This document shows, piece after piece, positions 20,564-46,585 of a DNA stretch of 64,000 nt (positions are counted from its first letter, which is position 1; every line of letters begins with the position of its first letter). A program made the position numbers and the translations under genes. The notes under the pieces are model-generated. The model had not been told where the DNA came from and searched no databases. It worked only from the letters and a program-made list of their open reading frames with translations. Where the stretch lies: the NCBI GenBank assembly GCA_963805085.1, contig CAWDTA010000003.1, forward strand, positions 160,001 to 224,000, read 5' to 3'. The stretch comes from an uncultured Veillonellaceae bacterium (GTDB lineage: Bacteria > Bacillota > Negativicutes > JARBTT01).

Positions 20564-23500
20564 AATATAGTTTAACAATAACCACAGAGCATCCGATAGT
20601 CAAAGGTCACATGGTTTATGAGGAAAATTTGCTGCCGGGATTGGCCTATATTGATATGCTGTATCATTTGGCGCAAGATAGCGTGGGACTAGATTATAGG
20701 AAGCATTGCTTGAAGCGTTTGACTATTTACACTCCCTTAATCGTGAGAGAAAATCGTCCAGTAAAGCTCGAAATTCTGTTTGATAGGGTATCAGATTATT
20801 GGAAAATTGCAGTTGAGGGGACGGAAACAGACGAGCATGGCGGTCCATTACCGAAAAAATTGTACATCACGGCTGAATTACATGAAGAAACAATACGATT
20901 TGAAGAACAAATAGATATTGAAGCCATAAAACATGCAGCTATGCAGTGCGTGGATATGGAAACGGTGTATGCAAAAGCCAGAAAACTAGGATTGGTTCAC
21001 CAGGGGATGATTAAGGCCAGAGGAAATATCTTTCTGACAGACTTCGGGTGTTTAATTGAAGTTAAAGTGGATGAGGCTTATCACGATGAAGAACCAAAAG
21101 TGCTTTTTCATCCCACCCTCATTGATGGTGCTGCAATGGCAACGGGGATTTTAGAAGGTAAAGACGATAAAGGAAACAATGAAGACCTATACATTCCATT
21201 GTTTTATGAATCATTTATCTCAATAGAACCCCTGCATACCCATTGTTATGCCAGGGTAAAGTCGTCTTCGTTCCGTAGGGTTAATGATGTTTGTACAACA
21301 GATATTGCGTTTTTTAACAAAGCGGGAAAACAGGTTGCGCAGCTAAATGGAATAACTGCAAAACGGATACGTTTTAAGGAACAGATTAACCCGGATTTGA
21401 AAAAAGAAACTGTTTTATCTGCTGTTCAAGGACATTCTGTTTCTGATGAGCCTTATCAATATCAAATCGAGACAACCTCAACGTACATCGAAAGTCTCTT
21501 ACGGAAGATATTTTCTAGGCACCTCAATCAGCCGGCATCTAAGATTGACATAAATTCAGGTTTCTATGAATTTGGTCTAGAATCATCCCAATTAATGGCT
21601 ATAGTGAATGATATTGAAAAATCCTTTAGCTTATCTTTAAGTCCAACTTTGTTGTTTGAAAATAGTAATATTAGAGAATTAGTAGATTGCTTAAAAGTAA
21701 AAAAGAGAGAAAGTGGCTATGGTGCGCATGTTGAATTTGAACCTGTTGAAAAAATGGACGGCGAGTTTGGTTCGTTCGAAGAAAGTAGGAGAGTAACAGA
21801 AAAGGGAAAAGCTGTTCAAGACATTGCCATCATCGGCCTTTCAGGGCGCTACCCTGGGGCGAACAATGTTCAGGAATTTTGGCAAAATCTAAAAGACGGC
21901 AGAGATTCTATTACTGAGATTCCCAAAGATCGCTGGGATCACAGCCTGTACTTCGACGAGGATAAAAGCAAGCAAGGAAAAACATATTGTAAGTGGGGAG
22001 GATTTTTAGAAGGTGTGGATCAATTTGATCCTCTATTCTTCAATATTTCACCGCGAGATGCAGAGATGATGGATCCTATGAACCGTCTTTTTCTGGAAAC
22101 TGTTTGGAATCTACTTGAAAACACAGGATATACACAAGAAATCCTGGAACGCCAATATCAGTCCAGTGTTGGGGTTTACGTCGGCGCAATGTATCAACAA
22201 TATCATTATTTTAATTCAGATCGTATTACAGAATCGGCGATTTCTGTATCTTCCTATAGTTCTATTGCTAATCGTATTTCTTACTTTTTTAACCTACATG
22301 GCCCTAGTGTGGCTGTCGATACTGCGTGTTCTTCTTCGGCCGTTGCTATTCACATGGCCTGCGAAAGTTTGATAAATGGAGAGTGTCAGGTAGCCATTGC
22401 TGGGGGCGTAAATCTTTCCATTCATCCTAATAAATACATAGGCTTAAGCCGGATGCAATTACTTGGTAGCCATCCAAATAGTAGAAGCTTCGGAAATGGG
22501 GATGGATTTCTTCCCGCTGAAGGCGTGGGCGCGGTATTGTTAAAGCCACTCGCTAAAGCAATCAGGGATGGGGATTCCATCTTAGCCGTAATTAAATCGA
22601 CAGCGATCAATCACGGAGGGCGTACTAATGCATTTTGCGTGCCTAATCCTAATGCGCAAGCGCAACTATTCGAAGACAATTTTAAAAAATCCGGGATTGA
22701 TCCCCGGACGATCAGTTATGTTGAAGCCGCTGCCAGTGGAACGGTTTTAGGAGATCCAGTCGAAATCACTGCATTGAATAAAACTTTTAAGAAATTTACA
22801 AACGACCAGCAGTTTTGTGCAATTGGATCGGTCAAATCCAATATTGGGCACGCTGAAGCAGCTTCGGGAATCTCCCAACTTACGAAAGTGATTTTACAGT
22901 TACAACATCGACAAATGGTTCCGACGATCAAAGCGGAACCCCTGAATTCCAATATAAGTTTTGATAACACCCCGTTTTATTTGCAGCGAGAACTTCAGGA
23001 TTGGAAACGCCCTGTGGTAAAAATTGATGGATATGAACAAGAGTTTCCACGACGTGCCACGGTAAGTTCCTTTGGGGCAGGGGGATCAAATGCGCATTTA
23101 ATTATCGAAGAATATGTCCCATTACAAGAAGAATCGCATTATACCCCTTGTTCTTCAAGTACACCTCAGATTGTGGTATTTTCGGCTAAAAACCAGGACC
23201 AATTAGTAGCAGTTGTTGAGCAAATGCTTGATTTTATTGAACTTCAAAAGGATTTTTCCTTACCCGAGCTTGCTTATACGCTTCAAATAGGGCGAGAAGC
23301 GATGGAATCTCGATTAGCAATGATTGTCTGTAATCAAGAAGAGCTAATCCGGGGTATGAAGGAGTATCTCAGCAATAAGGCTGAAGTTTGCATACCTACT
23401 TTTATAGGAGATCAGGAAGGTAATCATTCGAAGTTTATAAGCCTTATAAATCTGCTTTCAGGGAAGGCAGAGCAAGCTGTTTTGCAAGTGTTTTTGGCAG

Positions 23501-24132
23501 AACAGGATTTTGAGAAAATTGCTCTTTATTGGACACAAGGCGGTAAAATTCCTTGGAAATTGTTACATGAAGATCAAAAAGTCCGCAAGATACTTTTGCC
23601 TACCTATCCTTTTGCTCGAGAACACTATTGGATCTCAGAGCAAGGAGAGGAAGATTATCAATCAACTGCTATTCAACCCGCTGTAGGCGGCGAACAGAAG
23701 ATAACCGTTGATCTTAGTAATCCAACACAGAAAAATATTCAGGATTATATTGTGCATTTTTTATCGCAGCAACTGCATCTTGCGCAGGAACAAATCAATG
23801 TAAATAAAAATCTCCAAGACTATGGTGTGGATTCAATTATTGTAATGAAAATTATGCGTGAGTTTGAAGTACGCTTTAAACTCAAAATTACAGGACGAGA
23901 AATGCTGGAACATCAAACAATTAATGCTATGTCGTCTCATCTCACTTTAAAATTAGAAGCGTTGAGTAACCAAGATATTGCTGCAATCAATGTTTTACAC
24001 ACGGAATTTCAGCCGATGGAGTTACTAGCATCACCCGTTGATGAACCAGAAATCGAAGCTTTGGAAAAATTTAAACAAGGGACACTAACTCTTGAGGAAA
24101 TAGAGAGCTTATTAGATAAAGGAGTGATATAG
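20560..24132 (+). CDS. trans-AT PKS: DH-ACP-KS0-ACP
   Basis: ORF 20524..24132; likely GTG start at 20560 overlapping the upstream TGA (GTGA) after GGGGGGA. DH GHMVYEENLLPG; ACP FGLESS; KS with DTACSSS but EAAASGT replacing HGTGT; ACP YGVDSI; C-terminal docking helix (ALEKFKQGTLTLEEIESLL). Confidence 0.94.
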   Translation: MKYSLTITTEHPIVKGHMVYEENLLPGLAYIDMLYHLAQDSVGLDYRKHCLKRLTIYTPLIVRENRPVKLEILFDRVSDYWKIAVEGTETDEHGGPLPKKLYITAELHEETIRFEEQIDIEAIKHAAMQCVDMETVYAKARKLGLVHQGMIKARGNIFLTDFGCLIEVKVDEAYHDEEPKVLFHPTLIDGAAMATGILEGKDDKGNNEDLYIPLFYESFISIEPLHTHCYARVKSSSFRRVNDVCTTDIAFFNKAGKQVAQLNGITAKRIRFKEQINPDLKKETVLSAVQGHSVSDEPYQYQIETTSTYIESLLRKIFSRHLNQPASKIDINSGFYEFGLESSQLMAIVNDIEKSFSLSLSPTLLFENSNIRELVDCLKVKKRESGYGAHVEFEPVEKMDGEFGSFEESRRVTEKGKAVQDIAIIGLSGRYPGANNVQEFWQNLKDGRDSITEIPKDRWDHSLYFDEDKSKQGKTYCKWGGFLEGVDQFDPLFFNISPRDAEMMDPMNRLFLETVWNLLENTGYTQEILERQYQSSVGVYVGAMYQQYHYFNSDRITESAISVSSYSSIANRISYFFNLHGPSVAVDTACSSSAVAIHMACESLINGECQVAIAGGVNLSIHPNKYIGLSRMQLLGSHPNSRSFGNGDGFLPAEGVGAVLLKPLAKAIRDGDSILAVIKSTAINHGGRTNAFCVPNPNAQAQLFEDNFKKSGIDPRTISYVEAAASGTVLGDPVEITALNKTFKKFTNDQQFCAIGSVKSNIGHAEAASGISQLTKVILQLQHRQMVPTIKAEPLNSNISFDNTPFYLQRELQDWKRPVVKIDGYEQEFPRRATVSSFGAGGSNAHLIIEEYVPLQEESHYTPCSSSTPQIVVFSAKNQDQLVAVVEQMLDFIELQKDFSLPELAYTLQIGREAMESRLAMIVCNQEELIRGMKEYLSNKAEVCIPTFIGDQEGNHSKFISLINLLSGKAEQAVLQVFLAEQDFEKIALYWTQGGKIPWKLLHEDQKVRKILLPTYPFAREHYWISEQGEEDYQSTAIQPAVGGEQKITVDLSNPTQKNIQDYIVHFLSQQLHLAQEQINVNKNLQDYGVDSIIVMKIMREFEVRFKLKITGREMLEHQTINAMSSHLTLKLEALSNQDIAAINVLHTEFQPMELLASPVDEPEIEALEKFKQGTLTLEEIESLLDKGVI

Positions 24133-24133
24133 T

Positions 24134-27100
24134 ATGACGCGAAAAGAACTTCTCATCGCATATAAAGAAGGTAAGCTATCGACAGCTGAATTACAGGAAC
24201 AACTTCATGTGCTCAAAGAGCAATCTAACAAGAATCCTCTTTCCGAAGGCCAAAAAGGCTTGTGGATGTTGCAAAAAGTTTCACCTGAAATGAGTGCTTA
24301 TAATATTCCTTTATGCTTCCGTATTGATCAGAAACTGGATATCGAGAAGTTCAAGCAAGCCTGTAGTTTTATTCTGCAGAAGTATCCCATTCTTACAAGT
24401 GTATTTGGTGAAGATGATGGGATTCCTTACCAAATGATTCAGCCATCACAGCCGCTTGGCTGGCAGCAAGAAGATATTTCGACGCTTGAAGCTGACAAAA
24501 TTCTCCCGTATCTCAGGGAAAAAGCCAAAGAACCATTTTCACTCGAACGCGGCTCTTTAATGCGGATTCAGCTTTTGTCACGGTCTGAACAAGAACACAT
24601 TGTACTCATTGTCATTCACCATATTGTCTTTGATGGCACTTCTTCCTTGATTTTAGTTAAATCTCTACTAGAAGCATATCGAGACCTTGGTGATGGGAAG
24701 GGGGTGGAAGCAAAACCTTTCTCGACAAGCTTCAATGACTTTGTCGAATGGGAACAAGCAATGCTATCAAGTGCGGAAGGCGAAGCGCATCGTGATTACT
24801 GGAGAAAGCAATTATCTGGAACCTTACCAATATTGGAACTTCCTACAGATCGGCCTCGTCTTTCCTCACAAGGCTCAGAAGGCAAAACCTATACAAGCTT
24901 GCTTTCGCCTGAATTGACGAAACAAATAAAAACCTTTGCGCAAACCCAGAATATGAATTTGTCTATTATTTTATTAGGCATTTATAAAGTATTGCTGTAT
25001 CGCTATACAGATCTAGAGGATATTATCGTAGGAATGCCGACATTAGGACGTCCAGAAGAAAGATTTGACTCACAGATCGGCTATTTTGTGAACATGTTGC
25101 CGGTACGAAGTCAGATAAGGGATGAGCAATGCTTTTCTAAATTTATCAAAGAATTACAGCTAAATGTGATTGACGGATTGGATCATGCAGTGTATCCATT
25201 TCCCGCTATAGTCAGGGAATTAAATGTATCCCGCGAGACGAATTCGCCTGTTTTTCAAACAGCTTTTATTTACCAGAATTTTCTCCAATCAACAAGTTTA
25301 AAAACAACCGATGGTCAGGGGCAAAATTCGCTTCACATAGAGTTTATGGAGGATATTCATCAGGAAGGAGAGTTTGAGTTTGCGTTAGAAATTTTTGATA
25401 TGGACGACCATTTTACTTTAAATATCAAATATGATCCTGCTTTATATGATCATTCGACGATTAAACGAATGCTGGGGCACTATGTTAATTTAGCCGAAGA
25501 AGTTGTGAACGATCCAAACTTGCCCCTAGGAGAATATTCTTTAATATCAAGAGAGGAGCAAGCTACGATACTTAGTGACTGGAATGCGACTCAGGCGGAT
25601 TATCCAAAGGATCATACCATCCATCAACTTTTTGAAGAACAAGTAGAGAGAGCACCGGATAATACAGCAGTGGTATTTGAAGAAAGCAGCCTTACCTACA
25701 GACAGCTAAATAATAAAGCCAACCAACTTGCGAGAGTACTGCGAGAAAAAGGTGTGACACCCAATAGTATAGTTGCCATAATGGTAGAGCGATCTTTCAC
25801 GATGGTTATCGCTATCTTGGGAATCTTAAAAGCGGGCGGGGCATATTTGCCAATCGACCCTGAATATCCGGAAGATAGAATCAAGTTTATGCTGGAAGAT
25901 AGCCAGGCAGAAATCTTATTAACTCAGAGCCATCTAAAAGAAAAGAATGAATTTGACCTAGAAGTAATCGACTTGGATAACGAAGCCGTATATACCGTCG
26001 CAGATACTAATGTGGAGATTGTCAATCAGCCAAATGACTTGGCGTATGTAATCTATACATCGGGCTCTACTGGTAAACCGAAGGGAGCCATGATTGAGCA
26101 TAAAAATGTAGTACGGTTGATGTTTAATGACAAAATGCAGTTTGATTTCAGTCAAGCCGATGTGTGGACTATGTTTCATTCCTATTGTTTTGACTTTTCC
26201 GTATGGGAAATGTATGGTGCTTTATTATACGGAGGAAAGTTAATCATTGTGTCTAAGATGATGTCTCGAGACACTAGAGAATATTTATTGCTTTTAAAGC
26301 GGGAAAAGGTAACAGTATTAAACCAAACTCCCACCGCATTTTATAACTTAATTGCTGAAGAAATAAAATGTTCGGATCGGCAACTCAACATAAGGTATGT
26401 AATATTTGGCGGTGAGGCGTTAAAGCCGGGGAAATTAAAAGATTGGAACATAAAATATCCCAAGACTGAATTAATCAACATGTATGGAATAACGGAGACA
26501 ACCGTTCATGTAACTTATAAAAAGATAACTCAGTACGAAATAAGTTTAAATATCAGTAATATCGGGAGACCCATACCAACATTAACAACCTATATCATGA
26601 GCAAAAATATGAAGTTACAACCGATAGGAGTTATAGGAGAGTTATGTGTCGGAGGAGATGGATTAGGACGGGGTTATATAAAACGCCCCGAATTGACAAC
26701 CAAAAAGTTTATTCAAAGTCCATACTGCTCCAAGGAAATAATTTATAAATCTGGAGATTTGGCTCGGTATTTACCAAATGGTGAACTTGAATATTTAGGT
26801 CGAATCGACCATCAAGTCAAGATCAGAGGGTTCAGAATTGAATTGGGAGAGATCGAAAGTCGGTTATTAAAGCACGAAACAATTAAAGAAACGATAGTGG
26901 TAGACAAAGAGGATGATTACGGAAATAAATACCTATGCGCGTATATTGTCGGCGATAGGGAGCTTAACGTGAACGAATTACGAAATTACCTGTTGCAAGA
27001 GCTGCCGGAGTATATGATTCCCTCATATTTTATCCCATTAGAAAAAATACCGCTAACATCGAATAGCAAAGTAGATAGAAAAATGTTGCCTGATCCAGAT

Positions 27101-27478
27101 GGCAGCATGATCACTGGTGAAGAATACGAAGCTCCAAGAAATGAGATAGAAAAAAGACTTGCACAAATATGGCAGGAAGTATTGGAAGTTAAAAATATCG
27201 GCATAAATGATAATTTCTTTGCCTTAGGCGGAGACTCAATAAAAGCAATTCAAGTGTTAACGAGGCTTCAGAGTTTTAAACTGAAATTGGACGCCAAAAC
27301 TTTATTGACGAAGCCTGTAATAAAAGAATTGAGTAAATATGTAATACGTATTGAGCAGTATATAACAAACGAAGAAGTACAAATTACATCAAGCGATACT
27401 ATTGCCCAAAGAATTGGCTTAGAAGAGTTTGACAAAATATTAAAGGAATATCAATCTAATTTAGATGAAAAAATTTAG
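24134..27478 (+). CDS. single-module NRPS C-A-T, predicted L-Thr-activating
   Basis: C motif HHIVFDG; A motifs YTSGSTGKPKG and YKSGDL; pocket residues read as DFWNIGMV (canonical Thr code); T motif LGGDSI. Confidence 0.95.
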   Translation: MTRKELLIAYKEGKLSTAELQEQLHVLKEQSNKNPLSEGQKGLWMLQKVSPEMSAYNIPLCFRIDQKLDIEKFKQACSFILQKYPILTSVFGEDDGIPYQMIQPSQPLGWQQEDISTLEADKILPYLREKAKEPFSLERGSLMRIQLLSRSEQEHIVLIVIHHIVFDGTSSLILVKSLLEAYRDLGDGKGVEAKPFSTSFNDFVEWEQAMLSSAEGEAHRDYWRKQLSGTLPILELPTDRPRLSSQGSEGKTYTSLLSPELTKQIKTFAQTQNMNLSIILLGIYKVLLYRYTDLEDIIVGMPTLGRPEERFDSQIGYFVNMLPVRSQIRDEQCFSKFIKELQLNVIDGLDHAVYPFPAIVRELNVSRETNSPVFQTAFIYQNFLQSTSLKTTDGQGQNSLHIEFMEDIHQEGEFEFALEIFDMDDHFTLNIKYDPALYDHSTIKRMLGHYVNLAEEVVNDPNLPLGEYSLISREEQATILSDWNATQADYPKDHTIHQLFEEQVERAPDNTAVVFEESSLTYRQLNNKANQLARVLREKGVTPNSIVAIMVERSFTMVIAILGILKAGGAYLPIDPEYPEDRIKFMLEDSQAEILLTQSHLKEKNEFDLEVIDLDNEAVYTVADTNVEIVNQPNDLAYVIYTSGSTGKPKGAMIEHKNVVRLMFNDKMQFDFSQADVWTMFHSYCFDFSVWEMYGALLYGGKLIIVSKMMSRDTREYLLLLKREKVTVLNQTPTAFYNLIAEEIKCSDRQLNIRYVIFGGEALKPGKLKDWNIKYPKTELINMYGITETTVHVTYKKITQYEISLNISNIGRPIPTLTTYIMSKNMKLQPIGVIGELCVGGDGLGRGYIKRPELTTKKFIQSPYCSKEIIYKSGDLARYLPNGELEYLGRIDHQVKIRGFRIELGEIESRLLKHETIKETIVVDKEDDYGNKYLCAYIVGDRELNVNELRNYLLQELPEYMIPSYFIPLEKIPLTSNSKVDRKMLPDPDGSMITGEEYEAPRNEIEKRLAQIWQEVLEVKNIGINDNFFALGGDSIKAIQVLTRLQSFKLKLDAKTLLTKPVIKELSKYVIRIEQYITNEEVQITSSDTIAQRIGLEEFDKILKEYQSNLDEKI

Positions 27479-27479
27479 T

Positions 27480-27545
27480 GGGAGGATGATCAAGTTGGAT
27501 AAAAATAATATTAAAGATGTCCCCTATATAGCAGGTGTATTATAG
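27480..27545 (+). pseudogene. decayed relic of the 5' end of the NRPS-PKS gene at 31036
   Basis: 27480-27518 is identical to 31030-31068 (RBS plus MIKLDKNNIKD). It is followed by an 11-nt deletion and degenerate sequence, with a stop after 19 codons. Confidence 0.85.
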
Positions 27546-27669
27546 TATTAACTCAAAATAATGAGTTTAACAGGAGTGATAAGAACGTTTAACTGATTGA
27601 CTCAATTCGATTAACTAATTACTGAGTTCAATATTTGAACTTAAATATATTTATAGGGAGTGATATAGT

Positions 27670-30600
27670 ATGACGCGAAAAGAACTTCTCATCGCATATA
27701 AAGAAGGTAAGCTATCGACAGCTGAATTACAGGAACAACTTCATGTGCTCAAAGAGCAATCTAACAAGAATCCTCTTTCCGAAGGCCAAAAAGGCTTGTG
27801 GATGTTGCAAAAAGTTTCACCTGAAATGAGTGCTTATAATATTCCTTTATGCTTCCGTATTGATCAGAAACTGGATATCGAGAAGTTCAAGCAAGCCTGT
27901 AGTTTTATTCTGCAGAAGTATCCCATTCTTACAAGTGTATTTGGTGAAGATGATGGGGTTCCTTACCAAATGATTCAGCCATCACAGCCGCTTGGCTGGC
28001 AGCAAGAAGATATTTCGACGCTTGAAGCTGACAAAATTCTCCCGTATCTCAGGGAAAAAGCCAAAGAACCATTTTCACTCGAACGCGGCTCTTTAATGCG
28101 GATTCAGCTTTTGTCACGGTCCGAGCAAGAACACATTGTACTCATTGTCATTCACCATATTGTCTTTGATGGCACTTCCTCCTTGATTTTAGTTAAATCT
28201 CTACTAGAAGCATATCGAGACCTTGGTGATGGGAAGGGGGTGGAAGCAAAACCTTTCTCGACAAGCTTCAATGACTTTGTCGAATGGGAACAAGCAATGC
28301 TATCAAGTGCGGAAGGCGAAGCGCATCGTGATTACTGGAGAAAGCAATTATCTGGAACCTTACCAATATTGGAACTTCCTACAGATCGGCCTCGTCTTTC
28401 CTCACAAGGCTCAGAAGGCAAAACCTATACAAGCTTGCTTTCGCCTGAATTGACGAAACAAATAAAAACCTTTGCACAAACCCAGAATATGAATTTGTCT
28501 ATTATTTTATTAGGCATTTATAAAGTATTGCTGTATCGCTATACAGATCTAGAGGATGTTATCGTAGGAATGCCGACATTAGGACGTCCAGAAGAAAGAT
28601 TTGACTCACAGATCGGCTATTTTGTGAACATGTTGCCGGTACGAAGTCAGATAAGGGATGAGCAATGCTTTTCTAAATTTATCAAAGAATTACAGCTAAA
28701 TGTGATTGACGGATTGGATCATGCAGTGTATCCATTTCCCGTTATAGTCCGGGAATTAAATGTATCCCGCGAGACGAATTCACCTGTTTTTCAAACAGCT
28801 TTTATTTACCAAAATTTTCTCCAATCAACAAGTTTAAAAACAACCGATGGTCAGGGGCAAAATTCGCTTCACATAGAGTTTATGGAGGATATTCATCAGG
28901 AAGGAGAGTTTGAGTTTGCGTTAGAAATTTTTGATATGGACGACCATTTTACTTTAAATATCAAATATGATCCTGCTTTATATGATCATTCGACGATTAA
29001 ACGAATGCTGGGGCACTATGTTAATTTAGCCGAAGAAGTTGTGAACGATCCAAACTTGCCCCTAGGAGAATATTCTTTAATATCAAGAGAGGAGCAAACT
29101 ACGATACTTAGTGACTGGAATGCGACTCAGGCGGATTATCCAAAGGATCATACCATCCATCAACTTTTTGAAGAACAAGTAGAGAGAGCACCGGATAATA
29201 CAGCAGTGGTATTTGAAGAAAGCAGCCTTACCTACAGACAGCTAAATAATAAAGCCAACCAACTTGCGAGAGTACTGCGAGAAAAAGGTGTGACACCCAA
29301 TAGTATAGTCGCCATAATGGTAGAGCGATCTTTAGAAATGATCATAGGGATTATGGGCATTGTCAAGGCAGGGGGCGCATATTTGCCGATAAGTCCTGAC
29401 AATCCGGAAGAGCGAATAACATATATGTTGAAAGATAGCGAAGCAAAAATTGTGCTCACGCAAAATCGTTTTATTCATAAAGCTCATTTTGATGGTTTAA
29501 CGATAGATTTAGAAGGAAACGGCCTATATGTAGGAAAGAAAGGAAACCTGAAAAAAGTAAATTCACCTAGAGATATCGCATATGTAATATATACATCTGG
29601 TTCAACTGGCAAACCAAAGGGAGTGTTGATAGAACATCGTTCACTAATAAATAGACTAAATTGGATGCAGAAAAGTTATTCCATCGGAGAAAGCGATACG
29701 ATATTGCAAAAGACACCATATACCTTTGATGTATCGGTGTGGGAACTATTCTGGTGGTCTTTACAGGGGTCAAGGGTATGCTTTTTAAAACCGGGGGATG
29801 AAAAGGATCCTAGTAAAATTGTGGATGAAATAGAGAAAAACAATATAACAACTATGCATTTTGTACCTTCCATGCTAAATGCATTTTTGGAATATATGGA
29901 AGCATGCATAGACGTAAAAAGGCTTTCAAGTTTGAGACAGGTATTTGCAAGTGGAGAAGCCCTTTCCTTGCAACAAGTAAAACGCTTTAACAAATTACTT
30001 AAAGAAAGGAACAATACCAAGCTGTTCAATTTATATGGACCAACGGAAGCGACGATTGATGTATCCTATTTCGACTGTTCATCAGGAGAAGCGTTACATA
30101 TTATACCTATTGGCAAGGCAATAGACAATACTAGGCTTTATGTGCTGGATAAGAACAGAAGGCTGCAACCTGTGGGAATAACAGGAGAATTATATATAGC
30201 TGGGGATGGACTGGCAAGAGGATATCTAAACAGACCGGAGCTAACGACAGAAAAGTTTGTGCCTGATCCCTTTGTACCTGGAGAGAGAATGTATTTAACG
30301 GGCGACCTTGCAAGATGGCTGCCTGATGGGAATATAGAATATTTGGGAAGAATAGACCATCAGGTAAAAATTAGAGGTTTGAGAATCGAGTTGGGTGAAA
30401 TTGAAAACCGGCTCCAAAGCCATGCAGCAATAAAAGAAGCGGTAGTAGTAATAAAAGAAGGAAAAGAAGGAAGTAAATATCTTTGCGGATATATTACTGC
30501 CCAAGAAAAGCTTGACATCGGTGAGATAAAAAATTATCTGTCTAAGGAATTGCCAGAGTATATGGTCCCTAACTATATTATCCAGCTAAAAAGAATACCA

Positions 30601-31017
30601 CTTATATCTAGCGGTAAAGTAGATAGAAAAATGCTACCAGAGCCGGATGGCAGCATAATAGCAGATACGAAATATGAAGCACCCAGAAATGATGTAGAAA
30701 AAATACTTATTGAAATATGGCAAGAAGTGTTAGAAATTAAAAATATAGGCATAAATAATGATTTCTTTGCTTTAGGAGGAGATTCTATAAAAGCGATACA
30801 AGTGTTAGCGAGGCTCCAGAGATTTAAGTTGAAATTGGACGCCAAAACTTTATTGACGAATCCTGTAATAAAGGAATTGAGTAAATATGTAATACATGTC
30901 GAGCCTTGCATAAGAAAAGAAAAAGTACAAATTGCAATAAGCGATACTATTGCCAAAAGAATTGACCAAGATGAGTTCGACAAAATATTAAAGGAATATC
31001 AAGATAATTTAGCATGA
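27670..31017 (+). CDS. single-module NRPS C-A-T, predicted L-Ser-activating (paralog of 24134..27478)
   Basis: First ~1660 bp near-identical to the preceding gene; the A core differs, with pocket DVWHFSLI (canonical Ser code); T motif LGGDSI. Confidence 0.95.
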   Translation: MTRKELLIAYKEGKLSTAELQEQLHVLKEQSNKNPLSEGQKGLWMLQKVSPEMSAYNIPLCFRIDQKLDIEKFKQACSFILQKYPILTSVFGEDDGVPYQMIQPSQPLGWQQEDISTLEADKILPYLREKAKEPFSLERGSLMRIQLLSRSEQEHIVLIVIHHIVFDGTSSLILVKSLLEAYRDLGDGKGVEAKPFSTSFNDFVEWEQAMLSSAEGEAHRDYWRKQLSGTLPILELPTDRPRLSSQGSEGKTYTSLLSPELTKQIKTFAQTQNMNLSIILLGIYKVLLYRYTDLEDVIVGMPTLGRPEERFDSQIGYFVNMLPVRSQIRDEQCFSKFIKELQLNVIDGLDHAVYPFPVIVRELNVSRETNSPVFQTAFIYQNFLQSTSLKTTDGQGQNSLHIEFMEDIHQEGEFEFALEIFDMDDHFTLNIKYDPALYDHSTIKRMLGHYVNLAEEVVNDPNLPLGEYSLISREEQTTILSDWNATQADYPKDHTIHQLFEEQVERAPDNTAVVFEESSLTYRQLNNKANQLARVLREKGVTPNSIVAIMVERSLEMIIGIMGIVKAGGAYLPISPDNPEERITYMLKDSEAKIVLTQNRFIHKAHFDGLTIDLEGNGLYVGKKGNLKKVNSPRDIAYVIYTSGSTGKPKGVLIEHRSLINRLNWMQKSYSIGESDTILQKTPYTFDVSVWELFWWSLQGSRVCFLKPGDEKDPSKIVDEIEKNNITTMHFVPSMLNAFLEYMEACIDVKRLSSLRQVFASGEALSLQQVKRFNKLLKERNNTKLFNLYGPTEATIDVSYFDCSSGEALHIIPIGKAIDNTRLYVLDKNRRLQPVGITGELYIAGDGLARGYLNRPELTTEKFVPDPFVPGERMYLTGDLARWLPDGNIEYLGRIDHQVKIRGLRIELGEIENRLQSHAAIKEAVVVIKEGKEGSKYLCGYITAQEKLDIGEIKNYLSKELPEYMVPNYIIQLKRIPLISSGKVDRKMLPEPDGSIIADTKYEAPRNDVEKILIEIWQEVLEIKNIGINNDFFALGGDSIKAIQVLARLQRFKLKLDAKTLLTNPVIKELSKYVIHVEPCIRKEKVQIAISDTIAKRIDQDEFDKILKEYQDNLA

Positions 31018-31035
31018 AAAAAAATAAAAGGGAGG

Positions 31036-34000
31036 ATGATCAAGTTGGATAAAAATAATATTAAAGATATTTATCCTTTGTCCCCTATGCAGCAGGGTAT
31101 GTTGTTCCATGCTATAGTAGATGAAAACTCAAGGTCATATTTTCAACAAATAACCGTTACATTGGATGGAGATATAGACATAGGGGTATTTGAAGAAAGC
31201 TTTAATAATGTTATTAAAAAATATGATATTTTAAAAACCATGTTTATTTATAAAAGCGTTAAGGAGCCGGTACAGCTGGTTTTGAAGGATAGAAAAGCAA
31301 AAATTCATTTTGAAGATATATCAAAAATAGACGACAACGAGAAAATAGAATATATAGCGACATTTATGCAGAAAGATAAAGAAAGAGGTTTTAACTTATC
31401 AAAAGATATTCTTATTAGAATGGCAATATTTAAGAATGATGAAAAAATCCATAAATTAATATTAAGCTCTCAGCACATCATTATGGATGGTTGGTCTCTA
31501 GGGTTAGTATTAAATGCGATTTTTGAAAACTACATTAAGTTACAAAACAAACAACCTTTAAACATGCACGAAATAGCGCATTATAGTGACTTTATTAAAT
31601 GGCTTGAGCAACAAGATAAAGATGCAGGATTGCTGTATTGGCATAATTATTTGGCAGGATATGAACAAAAGGCAGAGATTCCATGTTGTACTGACAGAAT
31701 TAATGAAGGCAAAAGGTATATCCTGGGGCAAACAATATTCTCCATAAATAAATCCTTAACGAATAAACTTAACAGGCTGGCAAAAAAGAAGGGAATAACA
31801 TTAAATACAATATTCCAGATAGCATGGGGAATACTGCTCCAGAAATATAATTATACAGAAGATGTAGTTTTTGGTACGGTAGTGTCAGGAAGACCGCCGG
31901 AAATTGAAGGAATAGAAAGTATGGTGGGAATGCTTATGAACACCATACCAGTAAGGATGAATTTCGAACATAGTCGTACCTTCAATGAAATAATAAAACC
32001 GATACAAGATAGAGCCTTTGAATCTGCAAAATATGATTATTTACCTCTTGCGAAAATACAAGCAGGTACTGAATTAAAGAGAGATTTAATAAATCATGTA
32101 TTGATATATGAAAATATTCCTTTTGAAATAAAAAATAATGAAACAGAAAAAGGGACACAGTTTGATATTAAAGCATTCGAAATATCAGAGCAGACAAACT
32201 ATAATTTTAATGTTTATGTGATGAGTATCGCAGGCATAGAGATGACTATCAAATTTACCTATAACAACAATATATACGACGAATATCAAGTAAAAAAGAT
32301 AGAAGAACATTTCAAGAAGATACTGCAGCAAATAGCCGATAAGCCAGAAGAAAAAATATCATCAATCGAAATACTGTCTGATAGAGAAAAGGAACAAATA
32401 CTTGATGAATTTAATAATACAAGAGAATATTATCCGAAAGATAAAACAGTCTATCAACTTTTCGAGGATCAAGTAAAGAAAACGCCGGATAATGTAGCAG
32501 TAGTGTTTGAAGAAGATATACTTTCCTACAGACAATTAAATAATAGAGCCAACCAGCTTGCGAGGGTACTGCGAAAAAAAGGTGTGAAGTCAAATAGTAT
32601 AGTTGGCATTATGGTAGAAAGATCTCTGGAAATGATCGTAGGTATCATGGGTATATTAAAAGCAGGAGGCACATATTTACCTATAAGTCCTGACTATCCG
32701 GAAGAAAGAATATTGTATATGCTAGAGGATAGTAAAACTGACATCATCCTTACAGAGTCGAGCACGGCGCGTAGAATAGATTTTAAAGGCAAAAAATTTA
32801 ATTTAGACAATGAGGCGCTGAATAAAGAAAAAACTGAAGATTTAGAAATGGCAGATAGCACATCTGATTTAGCTTATATAATGTATACATCAGGAACAAC
32901 AGGAAAGCCAAAAGGAGTAATGATCCCTCATCAAGCATTGACGAATTTCCTCATTACCATGGGCAATAGACCTGGAATAAGTTCAAAAGATAAAATGCTA
33001 GCTGTAACAACATACTGTTTTGATATTGCTGGACTGGAATTATTCTTGCCTCTGATTAATGGTGCTCAATGCTGTATCTGTAGTACAGAAAAGACAAAAG
33101 ATGTGGAGAAGCTAAAACAAGAAATAAAAAGGGTAAAACCAACAATTATGCAAGCTACGCCGGTTACCTGGACAATGCTCTATCAGGCTGGATGGGAGAA
33201 TGAAGAAAAAACGAAAATCCTTTGTGGGGGCGAAGCACTTCCAGATAGATTAAAAAAATATTTTATTGATACCGGTAGTGATGTTTGGAATATGTTTGGT
33301 CCGACGGAGACAACTATTTGGTCGACTACTCAACAGATCAAAGAGAAAGAACCGATAAGTATTGGAAAGCCTATAGCAAATACGCAAATATATATACTGG
33401 ATAAGGATCTAAAACCTGCGCCGGTCGGTATTATGGGAGAATTATATATAGCAGGCGATGGGGTGGCTAGAGGGTATTTAAATAAACCAGAACTTACAGC
33501 AGAAAGATTCATTCAGAATCCTTTTAATGAAGAAACAAAACTCTATAAAACAGGCGATGTAGCCCGTTGGCTTTCCAATGGCAATATTGAGTTTATAGGA
33601 CGCATTGATCATCAAGTAAAGATACGAGGGTTCCGTATTGAATTGGGTGAAATTGAAAGCCAACTTAACAAGCATCAAGAGATAAAAGATAGTGTTGTAG
33701 TTGTGAAGGAACATGCAGGAATTAAACAGCTTGTAGCCTATTTTGTTCGAACCTATAATGATTGTAAGAACGAAGGCGAGGATAGGGCATTACTAGATGC
33801 ACAAATATTGCGTGACTATTTGCAAATGACTCTGCCTAACTATATGATTCCTGGAATGTTCGTGGAACTTGAAGCTATTCCCTTAACTTCCAATGAAAAG
33901 ATAGACAGAAAAGAATTAATGAGTCGAAAAATTGTGTTTACCGGGACTAAAAAAGAATCCCTTCCAAAATCAGCAATTGAAGAAAAAGTTTTAGAAATTT

Positions 34001-37000
34001 GGAAGGAAGTTCTTAATAGCGACGACATCAGTACAGAAGATGGGTTTTTTGAAGTGGGAGGAGACTCTTTTTCAGCAGTAAGTGTATCGGAAAAGATCAA
34101 GAATAATCTTAATTGCGATTTTAATGTAACGACATTATTTAAGTACTCCAATATTAAAGAAATCAGTAGATATATTACAGAAGTTAAAGAAAAAATTGCT
34201 GAATCTGCTGTAGAATCGAATGCGGGAACTGTCTTTGATGATTCCCATAAGGAGTCAATGTCTTTGAAAAAGGATGTAGAAGCACAAGTAATCCCTGATT
34301 ATTATGAAGAAAGTTTAGCCATTGTCGGCATTTCCTGTCAAGTCCCGGGAGCAAAAAACCATTATGAATTTTGGGGAAATTTAAGACAAGGTAAAGAAAG
34401 CACTAAATTTTTCACGAAAGAAGAACTTTACGCTTTTAGCCTGCCAGAAGAAATTGTTGAGAACCCTGACTATATTCCTGTGCAATCAGCAATAGAAGGA
34501 AAAGATCTGTTTGATCCGGGCTTCTTCAATATATCTCCCCGGGAAGTGGTATTAATGGATCCTCAAATGAGGAGCTTGCTGATTCATTCATGGAAAGCTC
34601 TGGAGGATGCGGGGTATGTTCCCGGACAGATTCCTGATACAAGTGTGTTTATGTCTGCAAGCAATAATTTTTATCAAGCATCAGCAATGACTCCTGCAAC
34701 ATTTCAAGTAACAAGAAATGTAAATGAATACATGGCTTGGATTTTGGGACAAGGCGGTACCATTCCCACCATGATTTCTTATAAACTAGGTTTAAAAGGA
34801 CCTAGTTTCTTTGTACATTCCAATTGTTCCTCAGCTTTAGCCGGATTATACTCAGCTTACCATAGTCTAATGTCGGGGGAAGTAAAGCATGCGCTGGTTG
34901 GAGCAGCCACCATATCGGCTGCGTCCAGCTTGGGGTATGTGCATCAACACGGATTGAATTTTTCCAGTGATGGACACATAAAAACCTTTGATGCTTCCGC
35001 CGATGGGATGATAGGAGGTGAAGGGGTTGCCGTTCTTCTACTTAAAAGAGCAGATGATGCAGTTAAAGATGGAGACCATATTTATGCTATTCTCAGAGGA
35101 ATTGGTATAAACAATGACGGGGCAGATAAAGTAGGCTTTTATGCTCCTAGTGTTAAAGGCCAGGTTGAGGTAATTGAAAAGGTATTGGATTCCAAAAAAA
35201 TTAATCCCGAATCAATTGGCTATGTTGAGGCTCATGGTACTGGAACAACAATAGGAGACTCTATAGAATTCGCTGCATTGAATGAAGTTTATCGAAAATA
35301 TACAACCCAAAAGCAATTTTGTGGACTGGGATCTGTTAAACCAAATATAGGACATTTAGACACTGCTTCAGGTTTGGCTGGATGTATCAAAGTTGCAATG
35401 ATTTTACAAAATAATGAAATTCCGCCATCAATAAATTATAGAGAACCAAATCCTATTTTTGAGTTAGATAAGTCACCATTTTATATTGTTAATAGACTTA
35501 AAAAATGGGAACAAAATACAGTTCCACATAGAGCAGCACTCAGCTCATTTGGCGTTGGTGGAACCAATACCCATGTAATCTTTGAACAATATCCGGTTGC
35601 TAAAGCATCGCCAAATATTGACCTAGGATATGAACCCAATAGTGTAGCTATTATTCCCCTATCTGCAAAAAATAATGATCGCCTTAAAGCCTACGCCAAA
35701 AAACTATTAGATTTTCTAAACAGGAATCCGAAAAATAAATCTGATGTCAATTTAATTGACTTGGCCTATACCTTTCAGGTAGGTAGAGAAGCAATGGATA
35801 GCAGAGTAATCTTTATTGTCAATAACATTGAAAAATTAACGGAAAATTTAAAAAGCTTCATCGATGGGAAAGAAGAAATCGAGGGGTGTTTCAGCGGCGA
35901 AAGAAAAGACGTACAAGATACTGCTAAATTATTGAAATTTGATGAAGATCCCAAAGAATTAATTGACAATTGGTTTGCAAAAGGAAATGTAGAAAAACTA
36001 GGTGAGCTTTGGGTTAATGGTCTGAATTTTGATTGGAATAAGCTATATGGCGATAATAAACCCCGCCGAATCAGCTTACCTACATATCCATTTACCGGTA
36101 GGCGCTACTGGATAACGGCAATAAATGCAGATGTTAACAATAAAATCAGAACTAAATCAATCGTTTCTACGATATCTGACAAACCAAACAGTATTTCTTT
36201 ACAATCTTTATCAAGTGATAAAATAAGTAAATCAGCTGAGCAAGTTGAGCCATCAGTTGCACTAGCGTCGACAAGTACTTTACGAGTACAACCAGAAAAC
36301 AGTTCCAAACCGGTGAGTTATAATCAAACAGCTAATATGGCGGAATCATTGCTAGAAACGCAATATGTAACGCAAAGTTCTGTTGAGCCAGCCGCCACTC
36401 CAGCACAGGTAAAGCAATCGCAGAGTTATATCTCAACAGAAACATTGCAGGAAGAGCTGACAACAAGTTTGGCAGAAGTTTTGTATATGGAACGGAATGA
36501 GGTCGATATTGACAAAAAATTCATTGATTTAGGTTTAGATTCGATTATCGGCGTAGAGTGGGTTAAGGTAATCAACAAACAATATGGCACAGCGATTCCG
36601 GCGACAAAAGTTTATGATTATCCTAGTATTCGCGAATTCACTGAATTCGTAGAATCAGAATTGAACAAACCAGGGGAGCAGTTGCTTAGCGATTCTTTGA
36701 CGACAGAGCAAGCAACGGAAAAAATCCAGATTCAAACCATTGAATTGCCGGCGACAGAAACAACAACTAGCAAGATGTCCACAGCTGAGCGAGTTGCCAC
36801 TCCAGCACAGGCAAAGCAATCGCAGAGTTATATCTCAACAGAAACATTGCAGGAAGAGCTGACAACGAGTTTGGCAGAAGTTTTGTATATGGAACGGAAT
36901 GAGGTCGATATTGACAAAAAATTCATTGATTTAGGTTTAGATTCGATTATCGGCGTAGAGTGGGTTAAGGTAATCAACAAACAATATGGCACAGCGATTC

Positions 37001-37578
37001 CGGCGACAAAAGTTTATGATTATCCTAGTATTCGAGAATTCACTGAATTCGTAGAAACAGAATTGAGCAAACCAGGGGAGCAGTTGCTTAGCGATTCTTT
37101 GACGCCAGATCAAGCAACGGAAAGAATCCAGATTCAAACCATTGAATTGCCGGCGACAGAAACAACAACTAGCAAGATGTCCACAGCTGAGCGAGTTGCC
37201 ACTCCAGCACAGGTAAAGCAATCGCAGAGTTATATCTCAACAGAAACATTGCAGGAAGAGCTGACAACAAGTTTGGCAGAAGTTTTGTATATGGAGCGGA
37301 ATGAGGTCGATATTAACAAAAAATTCATTGATTTAGGTTTAGATTCGATTATCGGCGTAGAGTGGGTTAAGGTAATCAACAAGCAATATGGCACAGCGAT
37401 TCCGGCGACAAAAGTTTATGATTATCCTAGTATTCGCGAATTCACTGAATTCGTAGAAACAGAATTGCATATTTCCACTCCAGCCATTTCCTTCGATGAA
37501 ATACTAAATCAAGTATATCAAGGAACTTTAGATGCTAAACTTGCTACTACCATCCTTCAACAGTTGAAGGAGAAATAA
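31036..37578 (+). CDS. hybrid NRPS-PKS: C-A(Gly)-T-KS-ACP-ACP-ACP (beta-branching ACPs)
   Basis: RBS GGGAGG; C begins DIYPLSPMQQGMLFH with motif QHIIMDG; A pocket DILQLGMI (Gly); T GGDSF; KS HSNCSS/HGTGT/GHLD typical of KS following an NRPS module; three ACPs GLDSIIGVEW carrying the Trp flag. Confidence 0.95.
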   Translation: MIKLDKNNIKDIYPLSPMQQGMLFHAIVDENSRSYFQQITVTLDGDIDIGVFEESFNNVIKKYDILKTMFIYKSVKEPVQLVLKDRKAKIHFEDISKIDDNEKIEYIATFMQKDKERGFNLSKDILIRMAIFKNDEKIHKLILSSQHIIMDGWSLGLVLNAIFENYIKLQNKQPLNMHEIAHYSDFIKWLEQQDKDAGLLYWHNYLAGYEQKAEIPCCTDRINEGKRYILGQTIFSINKSLTNKLNRLAKKKGITLNTIFQIAWGILLQKYNYTEDVVFGTVVSGRPPEIEGIESMVGMLMNTIPVRMNFEHSRTFNEIIKPIQDRAFESAKYDYLPLAKIQAGTELKRDLINHVLIYENIPFEIKNNETEKGTQFDIKAFEISEQTNYNFNVYVMSIAGIEMTIKFTYNNNIYDEYQVKKIEEHFKKILQQIADKPEEKISSIEILSDREKEQILDEFNNTREYYPKDKTVYQLFEDQVKKTPDNVAVVFEEDILSYRQLNNRANQLARVLRKKGVKSNSIVGIMVERSLEMIVGIMGILKAGGTYLPISPDYPEERILYMLEDSKTDIILTESSTARRIDFKGKKFNLDNEALNKEKTEDLEMADSTSDLAYIMYTSGTTGKPKGVMIPHQALTNFLITMGNRPGISSKDKMLAVTTYCFDIAGLELFLPLINGAQCCICSTEKTKDVEKLKQEIKRVKPTIMQATPVTWTMLYQAGWENEEKTKILCGGEALPDRLKKYFIDTGSDVWNMFGPTETTIWSTTQQIKEKEPISIGKPIANTQIYILDKDLKPAPVGIMGELYIAGDGVARGYLNKPELTAERFIQNPFNEETKLYKTGDVARWLSNGNIEFIGRIDHQVKIRGFRIELGEIESQLNKHQEIKDSVVVVKEHAGIKQLVAYFVRTYNDCKNEGEDRALLDAQILRDYLQMTLPNYMIPGMFVELEAIPLTSNEKIDRKELMSRKIVFTGTKKESLPKSAIEEKVLEIWKEVLNSDDISTEDGFFEVGGDSFSAVSVSEKIKNNLNCDFNVTTLFKYSNIKEISRYITEVKEKIAESAVESNAGTVFDDSHKESMSLKKDVEAQVIPDYYEESLAIVGISCQVPGAKNHYEFWGNLRQGKESTKFFTKEELYAFSLPEEIVENPDYIPVQSAIEGKDLFDPGFFNISPREVVLMDPQMRSLLIHSWKALEDAGYVPGQIPDTSVFMSASNNFYQASAMTPATFQVTRNVNEYMAWILGQGGTIPTMISYKLGLKGPSFFVHSNCSSALAGLYSAYHSLMSGEVKHALVGAATISAASSLGYVHQHGLNFSSDGHIKTFDASADGMIGGEGVAVLLLKRADDAVKDGDHIYAILRGIGINNDGADKVGFYAPSVKGQVEVIEKVLDSKKINPESIGYVEAHGTGTTIGDSIEFAALNEVYRKYTTQKQFCGLGSVKPNIGHLDTASGLAGCIKVAMILQNNEIPPSINYREPNPIFELDKSPFYIVNRLKKWEQNTVPHRAALSSFGVGGTNTHVIFEQYPVAKASPNIDLGYEPNSVAIIPLSAKNNDRLKAYAKKLLDFLNRNPKNKSDVNLIDLAYTFQVGREAMDSRVIFIVNNIEKLTENLKSFIDGKEEIEGCFSGERKDVQDTAKLLKFDEDPKELIDNWFAKGNVEKLGELWVNGLNFDWNKLYGDNKPRRISLPTYPFTGRRYWITAINADVNNKIRTKSIVSTISDKPNSISLQSLSSDKISKSAEQVEPSVALASTSTLRVQPENSSKPVSYNQTANMAESLLETQYVTQSSVEPAATPAQVKQSQSYISTETLQEELTTSLAEVLYMERNEVDIDKKFIDLGLDSIIGVEWVKVINKQYGTAIPATKVYDYPSIREFTEFVESELNKPGEQLLSDSLTTEQATEKIQIQTIELPATETTTSKMSTAERVATPAQAKQSQSYISTETLQEELTTSLAEVLYMERNEVDIDKKFIDLGLDSIIGVEWVKVINKQYGTAIPATKVYDYPSIREFTEFVETELSKPGEQLLSDSLTPDQATERIQIQTIELPATETTTSKMSTAERVATPAQVKQSQSYISTETLQEELTTSLAEVLYMERNEVDINKKFIDLGLDSIIGVEWVKVINKQYGTAIPATKVYDYPSIREFTEFVETELHISTPAISFDEILNQVYQGTLDAKLATTILQQLKEK
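36394..37466 (+). repeat. tandem repeat, 402-bp period, ~2.7 copies, encoding three ACPs
   Basis: gccactccagcacagg recurs at 36394, 36796 and 37198; the units are nearly identical in DNA. Confidence 0.95.
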
Positions 37579-45328: not shown

Positions 45329-46585
45329 ATGATTAATGTTGGAATTGAAGCAATGAATGCTTTTGGCGGAACAGCTTATCTAGATGTGATGGAATTAGCT
45401 AGACATCGTCAATTGGATACCACAAGATTTGAAAATTTACTAATGAAAGAGAAGGCCGTAGCTTTGCCTTACGAAGATCCGGTTACCTATGCGGTCAATG
45501 CAGCTAAACCAATCATAGATGCACTCTCAGAGGCAGAGAAAAATCGGATTGAAATGTTGGTAACTTGCACAGAATCGGGGATTGATTTTGGAAAATCTAT
45601 GAGTACCTATATTCATCATTATTTAGGATTGAATCGAAATTGTCGCTTGTTTGAACTTAAAAATGCGTGTTATTCGGGAGTTGCAGGATTTCAGACTGCC
45701 GTGAATTTTATTCTATCTCAGGCTTCTCCTGGGGCCAAAGCTCTAGTGATTGCAACTGATATTTCCCGGTTTATTGCTGAAGAAGGCGGGGAAATGACTG
45801 CGGACTGGTCTTATGCAGAACCGAGTGCGGGCGCGGGAGCTGTGGCGGCTTTAGTTAGTGAAATGCCCCATGTATTTCAAGTGGATGTAGGAGCTAATGG
45901 ATACTATGGATATGAGGTGATGGATACTTGCCGCCCTACTCCTGATAGCGAAGCTGGGGATGCAGATTTATCTCTATTGTCCTATTTGGATTGTTGTGAA
46001 AACGCTTTTTTGGAATATAAAAAACGGGTTCCTGGCGTAGATTATCAAAAAACATTCCAGTATCTCGCTTTTCATACTCCTTTTGGTGGGATGGTGAAGG
46101 GAGCCCACCGTACGATGATGCGGAAAATGACCAAGGCAAAGCCTCCTGTGATAGAGGACGATTTCAAACAACGGGTGACGCCGGGAATGACTTATTGCCA
46201 ACGTGTCGGAAATATCATGGGTGCCACCATGTTGCTGTCACTGCTGAGTACTATAAATAACGGTCAGTTTGATTCTCCAAAGCGAATAGGCTGTTTTTCT
46301 TATGGTTCTGGTTGCTGTTCTGAGTTTTTCAGTGGAGTAACTACGGCGCAAGGGCAAGAAAGCCTGCATCGGTTTGGGTTTGAGCGTCAGCTTAATGAAC
46401 GTTATCGATTATCTATGGATGAATATACTGATACGTTGTATGGGAGTGGGATGGTGAGATTCGGCACTAGAAATACTAAGTTAGATTTAGATTTTATTCC
46501 AGGTGTAACGGCCTCGTGCCAAGGGAAAGGCCGATTGTTCCTAGATGAAATTAAAGAATTTCATCGTGAATATAGGTGGATCTAA
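45329..46585 (+). CDS. pksG: HMG-CoA synthase-like beta-branching enzyme (PksG family)
   Basis: ESGIDFGKS, ELKNACYSG (catalytic Cys), FHTPFGGMVKGAHR and FSYGSGC; 418 aa; RBS AAGGAG. Confidence 0.96.
   Translation: MINVGIEAMNAFGGTAYLDVMELARHRQLDTTRFENLLMKEKAVALPYEDPVTYAVNAAKPIIDALSEAEKNRIEMLVTCTESGIDFGKSMSTYIHHYLGLNRNCRLFELKNACYSGVAGFQTAVNFILSQASPGAKALVIATDISRFIAEEGGEMTADWSYAEPSAGAGAVAALVSEMPHVFQVDVGANGYYGYEVMDTCRPTPDSEAGDADLSLLSYLDCCENAFLEYKKRVPGVDYQKTFQYLAFHTPFGGMVKGAHRTMMRKMTKAKPPVIEDDFKQRVTPGMTYCQRVGNIMGATMLLSLLSTINNGQFDSPKRIGCFSYGSGCCSEFFSGVTTAQGQESLHRFGFERQLNERYRLSMDEYTDTLYGSGMVRFGTRNTKLDLDFIPGVTASCQGKGRLFLDEIKEFHREYRWI

Follow-up and report, generated by a model that had tools for sequence, protein, structure and literature searches.

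A central question raised by this locus is whether two adjacent and largely identical genes for nonribosomal peptide synthetase (NRPS) modules, one with a threonine (Thr) and the other with a serine (Ser) pocket, compete for a single slot of an assembly line or act there one after the other. The two genes lie in a stretch of 64,000 nucleotides (nt) from an uncultured Veillonellaceae bacterium (C3:160001-224000 of source genome G000, an assembly of 4.2 Mb in 5 contigs that is 83% complete). This stretch, in the following termed the window, is filled with large polyketide synthase (PKS) and NRPS genes, all on one strand. A first, sequence-only reading had suggested that the two modules operate in parallel rather than in series. 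As laid out below, we would instead give a probability of roughly 55% to the insertion of a module into the line, with a serial main route producing a ...-Thr-Ser-Gly-... backbone and with Thr-only and Ser-only shunts as a possibility in the split form found here.

Both genes encode the same succession of condensation (C), adenylation (A) and carrier (T) domains between a short N-terminal head and a C-terminal tail helix, and they share a long 5' tract:

24134..27478, + strand: gene 1 (P0001, 1114 amino acids (aa)), with head 24134-24226, C domain 24227-25573, A domain 25631-27070, T domain 27155-27343 and tail helix 27350-27475
27670..31017, + strand: gene 2 (P0002, 1115 aa), with head 27670-27762, C domain 27763-29106, A domain 29167-30618, T domain 30706-30891 and tail helix 30898-31014
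24121..25797, + strand: copy 1 of the homogenised tract, comprising ribosome-binding site (RBS), head, C domain and the start of the A domain up to just before motif A2
27657..29333, + strand: copy 2 of the homogenised tract, which pairs with copy 1 at an offset of 3536

The two copies of the tract differ at 12 positions in 1,677 nt (1,665 matching, i.e. 99.28% identity), which bears out the earlier observation of near-identity from the RBS to 25797/29333, and this match is far beyond chance; at the same offset, only 15-27 of 60 bases per block match in the flanks (about 25-45%). The tract sets in 13 nt ahead of the ATG, so that the RBS is included, and reaches residue 554, immediately short of the A2 region. 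At the protein level, overall identity is 76%, with 100% in the head (residues 1-31), 99.1% in the C domain, 41.9% in the A core (residues 555-890), 62.7% in the A subdomain, 83.3% in the T domain and 64.1% in the tail. Divergence across the A core and renewed similarity at A10, T domain and tail had been described correctly, and so had the common N-terminal docking head, which is MTRKELLIAYKEGKLSTAEL in both proteins, and the tails EEFDKILKEY (gene 1) and DEFDKILKEY (gene 2). Matches to Condensation, AMP-binding and PP-binding have Pfam scores far above cut-off in both cases, and the catalytic motifs are complete (HHIVFDG, SGSTGKPKG, GRIDHQVKIRG, the pocket Lys and the GGDS carrier serine); both genes encode NRPS elongation modules (C-A-T). 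Gene 2 is separated from gene 1 by a 191-nt spacer and has a strong RBS of its own.

With pocket positions set by the Stachelhaus positions relative to conserved motifs, the pockets read DFWNIGMVHK in gene 1, DVWHFSLIDK in gene 2 and, by eye, DILQLGMIWK in the following gene. The code of gene 2 is presumably that of Ser. EntF activates Ser, and the assignment fits the better EntF scores of gene 2 as compared with gene 1, both for the EntF model (522.7 vs 395.4 bits) and for the EntF chain among PDB sequences (376.9 vs 257.6 bits), although PDB sequence searches with A domains do not alone assign a substrate. As to the other two codes, PMC12283262 has DFWNIGMVHK in its section on domains that activate Thr/Dhb and counts DILQLGMIWK among those that activate Gly. 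Thus, the Thr code proposed for gene 1 has found a published counterpart, while the Ser code proposed for gene 2 (DVWHFSLI) agrees with the EntF scores.

How two such modules came to lie side by side can be read from the spacer between them:

27480..27545, + strand: decayed repeat of the beginning of the gene at 31036 (RBS and initial codons), i.e. a tandem-duplication scar that is now a 19-codon dead open reading frame (ORF)
27557..27651, + strand: copy of a repeated leader element, directly 5' of the RBS of gene 2, which fills the rest of the 191-nt spacer

In the scar, the RBS and first 11 codons match 31029-31067 exactly (39 nt), followed by a 12-nt gap and scattered changes. The spacer behind gene 1 thus repeats the start of the gene at 31036, RBS included. 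A duplicated unit with its right end inside that gene would leave just such a scar, which identifies it as the trace of a tandem duplication. The leader element (about 50-95 nt), in which a GTTCAA..TTGAAC palindrome is followed by an AT-rich run, also occurs directly 5' of the RBS of at least four other, unrelated genes of the same genome (C3:89660-89713, C2:2041199-2041247, C2:1965233-1965354 and C2:1382559-1382593), whose translations, read by eye, are Fe-alcohol-dehydrogenase-like, secreted, nucleotidyltransferase-like and fumarase/aspartase-like. Neither the spacer nor the leader element had a credible match in Rfam, a scan of 27300-27800 for consensus promoters and terminators found 0 sites, and folding of the spacer RNA (z = -1.07) gave no sign of structure.

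The key comparison is with a metagenome contig (L049, 19.3 kb), which contains the same junction with about 92% nt identity to the window. Here, the two modules, in the same Thr-then-Ser order, form one 2,215-aa ORF (L049:7156-13803) between a protein with a non-elongating ketosynthase (KS0) and an acyl carrier protein (ACP) on one side and a C-A protein on the other. In this fusion, C-A(Thr)-T-...EEFDKILKEYQDNL is followed without a break by KEGTLSTAELQ...-C-A(Ser)-T-...EFDKILKEYQDNLA, i.e. the first tail runs directly into the second half of the second head. L049 thus lacks a piece that the window has, which extends from the end of gene 1 through scar and spacer to the tenth codon of gene 2. 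As far as can be judged from its sequence, L049 represents the covalent form of a colinear serial bimodule. Since the scar is present in the window and deleted in L049, the split form is the older state and the fusion a later in-frame deletion. That this fusion is established and not a fresh deletion is suggested by its half-head, which has lost a Lys that is invariant in 13/13 family sequences and which differs from the N-terminal head of the same protein by 4 non-synonymous and 0 synonymous changes, right beside a homogenised C region that is identical in both copies. Homology searches with the fusion junction region, and with gene 1 against longer proteins, were swamped by generic multi-module NRPSs (best identities 40% and 45%) and are uninformative on the frequency of fused forms.

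L049 also bears on a more trivial possibility, namely that two strain variants were placed in tandem by the assembly, which in this case is 83% complete, comes in 5 contigs and has local frame errors. This seems so improbable as to be nearly negligible, as an independent contig has both modules in the same order and as the junction, instead of showing the clean edge of a repeat, holds a specific scar together with a repeated leader element. Assembly of reads over 23500-31600 produced contigs of 151-347 nt, none of which spans the junction, with a single joint whose shorter side, at 26 letters, is too short to be of use; a search for sequencing runs found 11 DNA runs with small shares (0.05-0.13) and none of RNA.

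Comparison of the window with L049 in 150-nt bins further reveals how the two copies evolve. In the C region, copies 1 and 2 are 97-100% identical per bin in the window and 100% identical in L049, whereas window and L049 are 87-95% identical to each other; in the A and T parts, the orthologues are 89-97% identical. Because C domains are 99-100% identical within each genome and 87-95% identical between genomes, the near-identity of the 5' 1.7 kb indicates upkeep by gene conversion, not recent copying, and the conversion tract appears to stop where the A cores are too different to recombine. In contrast, the T domain and tail show a synonymous divergence (dS) of 0.42 between paralogues and of 0.19 between orthologues, and the duplication thus predates the split of the two lineages. 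As the head falls inside the gene-conversion tract, its identity needs no selective explanation. The earlier idea of a shared interface holds in the sense that heads are identical and tail helices near-identical, but head identity cannot be taken as evidence of selection, which also weakens one of the arguments for parallel operation.

Selection does act on the A cores, with ratios of non-synonymous to synonymous divergence (dN/dS) between window and L049 orthologues of 0.107 (Thr, gene 1) and 0.098 (Ser, gene 2). Together with the intact catalytic motifs, these low values argue that both modules are kept under purifying selection. Alternatively, one of the twins could be redundant, silent or decaying, with just a single residue being incorporated. 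Gene 2 indeed lies behind a 191-nt spacer and is not translationally coupled, and a ketosynthase (KS) elsewhere in the cluster (~42400-43410) reads with several frame changes. With both ORFs intact in all catalytic motifs, a dN/dS of about 0.1 in both A cores since the split from L049 and a strong RBS in front of gene 2, we nevertheless consider this quite improbable.

What did the slot look like before it was doubled? In a search of a large database, the closest proteins make up a family with 57-83% identity. The resulting family table (n=13) comprises the twins (P0001, P0002), the slot protein of genome G006 (P0005) and ten matches with at least 57% identity (P0007-P0015, P0017), with P0016 (42%) and weaker matches dropped; P0005 and P0013 are 91% identical and hence not independent. 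Eight of the eleven relatives are about 1,550 aa long and three about 1,110-1,140 aa. The extra part of P0005 is a condensation-fold domain carrying TIGR01720, which we take to be an epimerisation (E) domain. Pocket codes are those of Ser in seven relatives, of Thr in one (P0007) and of Gly in one (P0012), with DVTNFAIIYK, which has no assignment, in the remaining two. The A core of gene 1 is 89.3% identical to that of P0007, a Thr relative with the E-like domain, and the A core of gene 2 is 94.0% identical to that of the single-module relative P0010, with the C domains of all relatives being 67-82% identical to those of the window. The family slot represents a natural series of A-core swaps, or a swap hot spot, with a common 5' breakpoint region.

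At the level of genomes, G006 has one C-A-T-E gene (1,557 aa) and the complete 4.8-Mb genome G060 one C-A-T gene (a 1,110-aa frame) between the same neighbours as the twins, i.e. one protein with the C-terminus ...ALEKFKQG.L.LEEIESLLDKGVI and another with ...DIYPLSPMQ near its N-terminus. The G060 orthologue is 99.9% identical to a protein that bears the NCBI label Methylomusa anaerophila. The slot thus holds a single module at 2/2 orthologous genome loci read. In a class-level search, 4 of 401 genomes gave matches at E<=1e-280 (G000 included), with two adjacent copies in G000 only; the order to which G000 belongs is represented by 2 genomes, the other one being without a match. Ancestrally, therefore, the slot held one module, and since single-module relatives carry either a Ser or a Thr core, each of the twins is by itself a plausible occupant.

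Two further observations concern the ends of these proteins. The E-like domain of most relatives is absent from both twins (27340-27400 and 30890-30950) and from P0009, apparently at the same junction (between KYVI. and.E.CI), and it is absent at a different junction from G060; the next C domain nevertheless starts like those that follow E domains in relatives. In P0017, encoded on a 3.7-kb contig, the upstream ACP seemingly leads straight into the rear half of the head, without the upstream tail or helix 1 of the head, but the ORF may run off the contig. If read correctly, this would mean that the docking junction of a certainly serial step can also collapse into a linker in this family.

Our preferred reading, the insertion of a module in series, would begin with a single NRPS module that linked the KS0-ACP protein to the C-A(Gly) protein and that underwent an old tandem duplication, in which the duplicated unit extended from a point 13 nt ahead of the start codon into the opening codons of the gene that follows. 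The A core would be of the Thr type in one copy and of the Ser type usual for the family in the other, and gene conversion would afterwards have kept RBS, head, C domain and A start nearly identical within each genome. With both modules functional, the growing chain would pass from KS0-ACP to C-A(Thr)-T, then to C-A(Ser)-T and on to C-A(Gly)-T, and a sister lineage would have fixed this serial order by fusing the two genes. While the anatomy, duplication scar, concerted evolution, purifying selection and fused relative are shown by the sequences, the direction of chain transfer and the product are what we infer. Because the genes in the window are split, with identical heads and similar tails, Thr-only or Ser-only shunt products would be physically possible.

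Whether a chain can actually pass from gene 1 to gene 2 depends on the docking elements of the twins and of their neighbours:

20524..24132, + strand: upstream PKS protein with a dehydratase-like region, ACP, KS0, ACP and a C-terminal helix-turn-helix tail ending EIEALEKFKQGTLTLEEIESLLDKGVI
31036..37578, + strand: downstream hybrid protein with C, A (pocket DILQLGMIWK, Gly code), T, KS and three near-identical ACPs

The order at this PKS-to-NRPS junction is thus 20524-24132, gene 1 (24134-27478), gene 2 (27670-31017) and 31036-37578, with the stop codon of the upstream protein 1 nt before the start of gene 1. The KS of the upstream protein lacks the His of HGTGT, with EAAASGT read at the position of the motif, which makes it a non-elongating KS0, and an ACP follows, in line with what had been expected for this neighbour. 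The tail of this protein is conserved in L049, G006 and G060. At the other end of the slot, the N-terminus of the downstream protein, MIKLDKNNIKDIYPLSPMQQ, is the presumed acceptor of the twin tail helix; the C domain of this protein is 97.8% identical to its L049 counterpart.

By sequence pattern as seen by eye, the head of the twins is a helix-turn-helix and their tail a single helix, with the tail of the upstream protein also being a helix-turn-helix. Accordingly, the earlier remark that neither twin has an obvious tail-to-head match for the other is correct with respect to this overall pattern, but it has to be softened insofar as there is some likeness between LEEFDKILKEY, the core of the tail, and helix 2 in the tail of the upstream protein (LEEIESLLDKG), which would make tail-to-head contact between the twins (cross-docking) possible. 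In communication-mediating (COM)-type pairs, the donor is a short helix at the C-terminus, behind an E or T domain, and its partner is the N-terminal end of the C domain that comes next. The TPSD-like motif before the tail helix of E-containing relatives and the DIYPLSPMQ start of the next protein might resemble this type. A second class, the four-helix bundle (4HB) docking elements of trans-acyltransferase (trans-AT) PKSs, features a two-helix hairpin from each of the C- and N-terminal partners (PMC11221535). Searching PDB sequences with head and tail by phmmer gave nothing below E 0.4 and no docking-domain entry, and a complex prediction for residues 1-480 of gene 2 with residues 1000-1114 of gene 1 (score 0.00, mark 0.32) counts neither way.

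Several points speak against a serial route and have to be weighed together. A matched tail-to-head docking pair between the twins is not recognisable by sequence in the window. The head of gene 2 is complete and identical to that of gene 1, such that the upstream protein should bind both equally, and gene 1 keeps the tail helix of gene 2 (EFDKILKEY), with which it could hand over directly to the Gly protein. Single-module relatives bear a Ser core or, in P0007, a Thr core, the locus must have held two interchangeable genes right after the duplication, and, with the split form being older, the ancestor may have run in parallel before the L049 lineage became serial. Finally, the fused form is seen on one metagenome contig only.

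These points favour the alternative in which the twins are competitors at both ends, for one upstream tail and for one downstream acceptor, so that Thr-Gly and Ser-Gly congeners are made and serial transfer is minor or absent. This alternative also draws on the near-identity of heads and tail helices, the occurrence of either core in single-module relatives, the ancestral nature of the split state with its scar and published precedents of duplicated NRPS genes that share a partner (WolG1/WolG2, AptA1/AptA2 and the vatiamides). On the other hand, a close relative has both modules covalently in series, gene conversion suffices to explain the identical heads, and the precedents, as far as described in these sources, branch at the start or end of a line, with none found that rejoins inside it. 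Parallel operation, which thus finds partial support, is weakened but not refuted, and we regard it as a serious though less likely alternative. About as tentative is a transitional state, in which an internal node bifurcates and rejoins such that a single line, by virtue of identical heads and similar tails, releases Thr-Gly, Ser-Gly and Thr-Ser-Gly backbones; gene conversion would then keep the node promiscuous, and the sister lineage would have resolved it into a fixed serial bimodule by deleting the docking junction.

The twins are part of a larger line. An HMG-CoA-synthase-like gene and an enoyl-CoA hydratase gene at 45329-47361 form an HMGS/ECH beta-branching cassette, and the ORF at 47309-56023 has a thioesterase at its C-terminal end. 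No acyltransferase (AT) domain (Acyl_transf_1) was matched in any window ORF scanned; PF00698 matches on the same contig lie outside the window, at C3:256709-257548 and, as a partial match, at C3:156406-156609, and either of these might serve the window line. Because of the lack of AT domains in the scanned ORFs, the HMGS/ECH genes and the thioesterase at the end of 47309-56023, the cluster is best classified as a trans-AT PKS/NRPS hybrid line with beta-branching, with no AT inside the megasynthases and free-standing AT elsewhere.

Some details of this line deserve mention in their own right. In the C domain of the Gly module (31036-32400; in L049 from 13822), the first His of HHxxxDG is Gln (SQHIIMDG) in both the window and L049, with His in G006 and G060. 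The same protein has three near-identical repeats of about 130 aa at 35900-37500, each consisting of an ACP and a linker, and G006 has four of them. The KS that ends the ORF at 37643-42646 (42400-43410) can be followed through five or more frame changes, its conserved residues switching back and forth between two frames, and appears in the ORF list as 42653-43141 and 43407-45275; a local assembly error or early decay of the line would account for this. Behind the thioesterase of 47309-56023, a new ORF (56374-63999) starts with an AMP-binding, acyl-ligase-like region followed by KS, ketoreductase and ACP sets, and represents either a second line or the loading end of the window line out of gene order. 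Elsewhere in the genome, a separate large NRPS cluster lies at C2:1051000-1095000; it contains no fewer than ten C-A-T-like regions that match gene 1 at 37-42% identity, as well as a match to an integrated AT at C2:1055102-1056052. A plasmid search gave no match.

How a module can enter the middle of a line without breaking the docking between proteins is an open practical question for NRPS/PKS engineering. The family described here displays three natural states of one slot, i.e. a single module with or without an E-like domain, split twins with identical heads (the window) and a fused bimodule (L049), and it also displays natural recombination boundaries, with the core swap starting immediately ahead of A2 and fusions occurring in mid-head. 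If the transitional reading were true, bifurcation would be the way in which assembly lines gain new modules at internal positions; if the twins simply act in series, the locus is a case of ordinary, well-documented module duplication in an orphan cluster. Titles and the beginnings of abstracts yielded no paper on this cluster, on a trans-AT product of Negativicutes or on internal alternative NRPS cartridges in trans-AT lines.

Genetically encoded module swapping, as the sequence-only reading had called it, is not new as a concept, but an internal node that splits and rejoins would be a new variant. The closest precedent is the wollamide/desotamide system, where, according to Booth et al. 2022 (PMC9205934), WolG1/WolG2 arose by whole-gene duplication and A-domain recombination from A2 to A5/A6, and co-production was shown. 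As in the twins, a whole NRPS gene was duplicated there, the A region of one copy was replaced from about A2 and both copies kept the N-terminal docking element for the same upstream partner. Gene duplication plus replacement of the A region, which is one feature of a bifurcated line in the sense of these authors, is also present in the window, as seen from its scar and from the course of identity, which falls at residue 554, ahead of A2, from 99% to about 42% and recovers in part after A8. Unlike the twins, the WolG duplicate is, in the same account, a terminal bimodule, its branches never rejoin and co-production was observed by liquid chromatography-mass spectrometry, whereas the duplicate of the window lies inside the line, would also need a downstream partner in common and has a relative that is fused in series.

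AptA1 and AptA2 of anabaenopeptin biosynthesis are alternative starter modules (Rouhiainen et al. 2010, as reported in the review PMC8402340). Like the twins, they are two paralogous NRPS genes that differ in their first A-domain specificity and feed one downstream line; unlike the twins, they are described there as starters without an upstream partner in a cyanobacterial, pure NRPS system. The vatiamides (Moss et al. 2019) are cited for combinatorial docking in PMC10127204. Bacillus proteins match gene 1 with 41-45% identity from residue 1 on, i.e. including the head, and two family members have the JGI label 'polyketide synthase PksN'. In the vatiamide PKS/NRPS, one upstream PKS module reportedly serves several NRPS partners via identical docking sequences, and the branches of this cis-AT cyanobacterial system are said to give different end products without rejoining. 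The matching Bacillus proteins may well be PksN of bacillaene synthesis. With a PksN-type junction, the window shares the trans-AT line, the handover from KS0-ACP to a C domain and the HMGS/ECH beta-branching cassette, but it differs in module order, amino acids and organism class.

Finally, the locus resembles ordinary colinear module duplication, with tandem modules, an A core swapped before A2 and homogenised C domains, and L049 is exactly of this kind. Unlike in ordinary colinear duplication, the modules in the window are separate genes, each with the full identical head and the tail of the single-module ancestor. Overall, the evidence favours the ordinary insertion of a module over an internal node that splits and rejoins.

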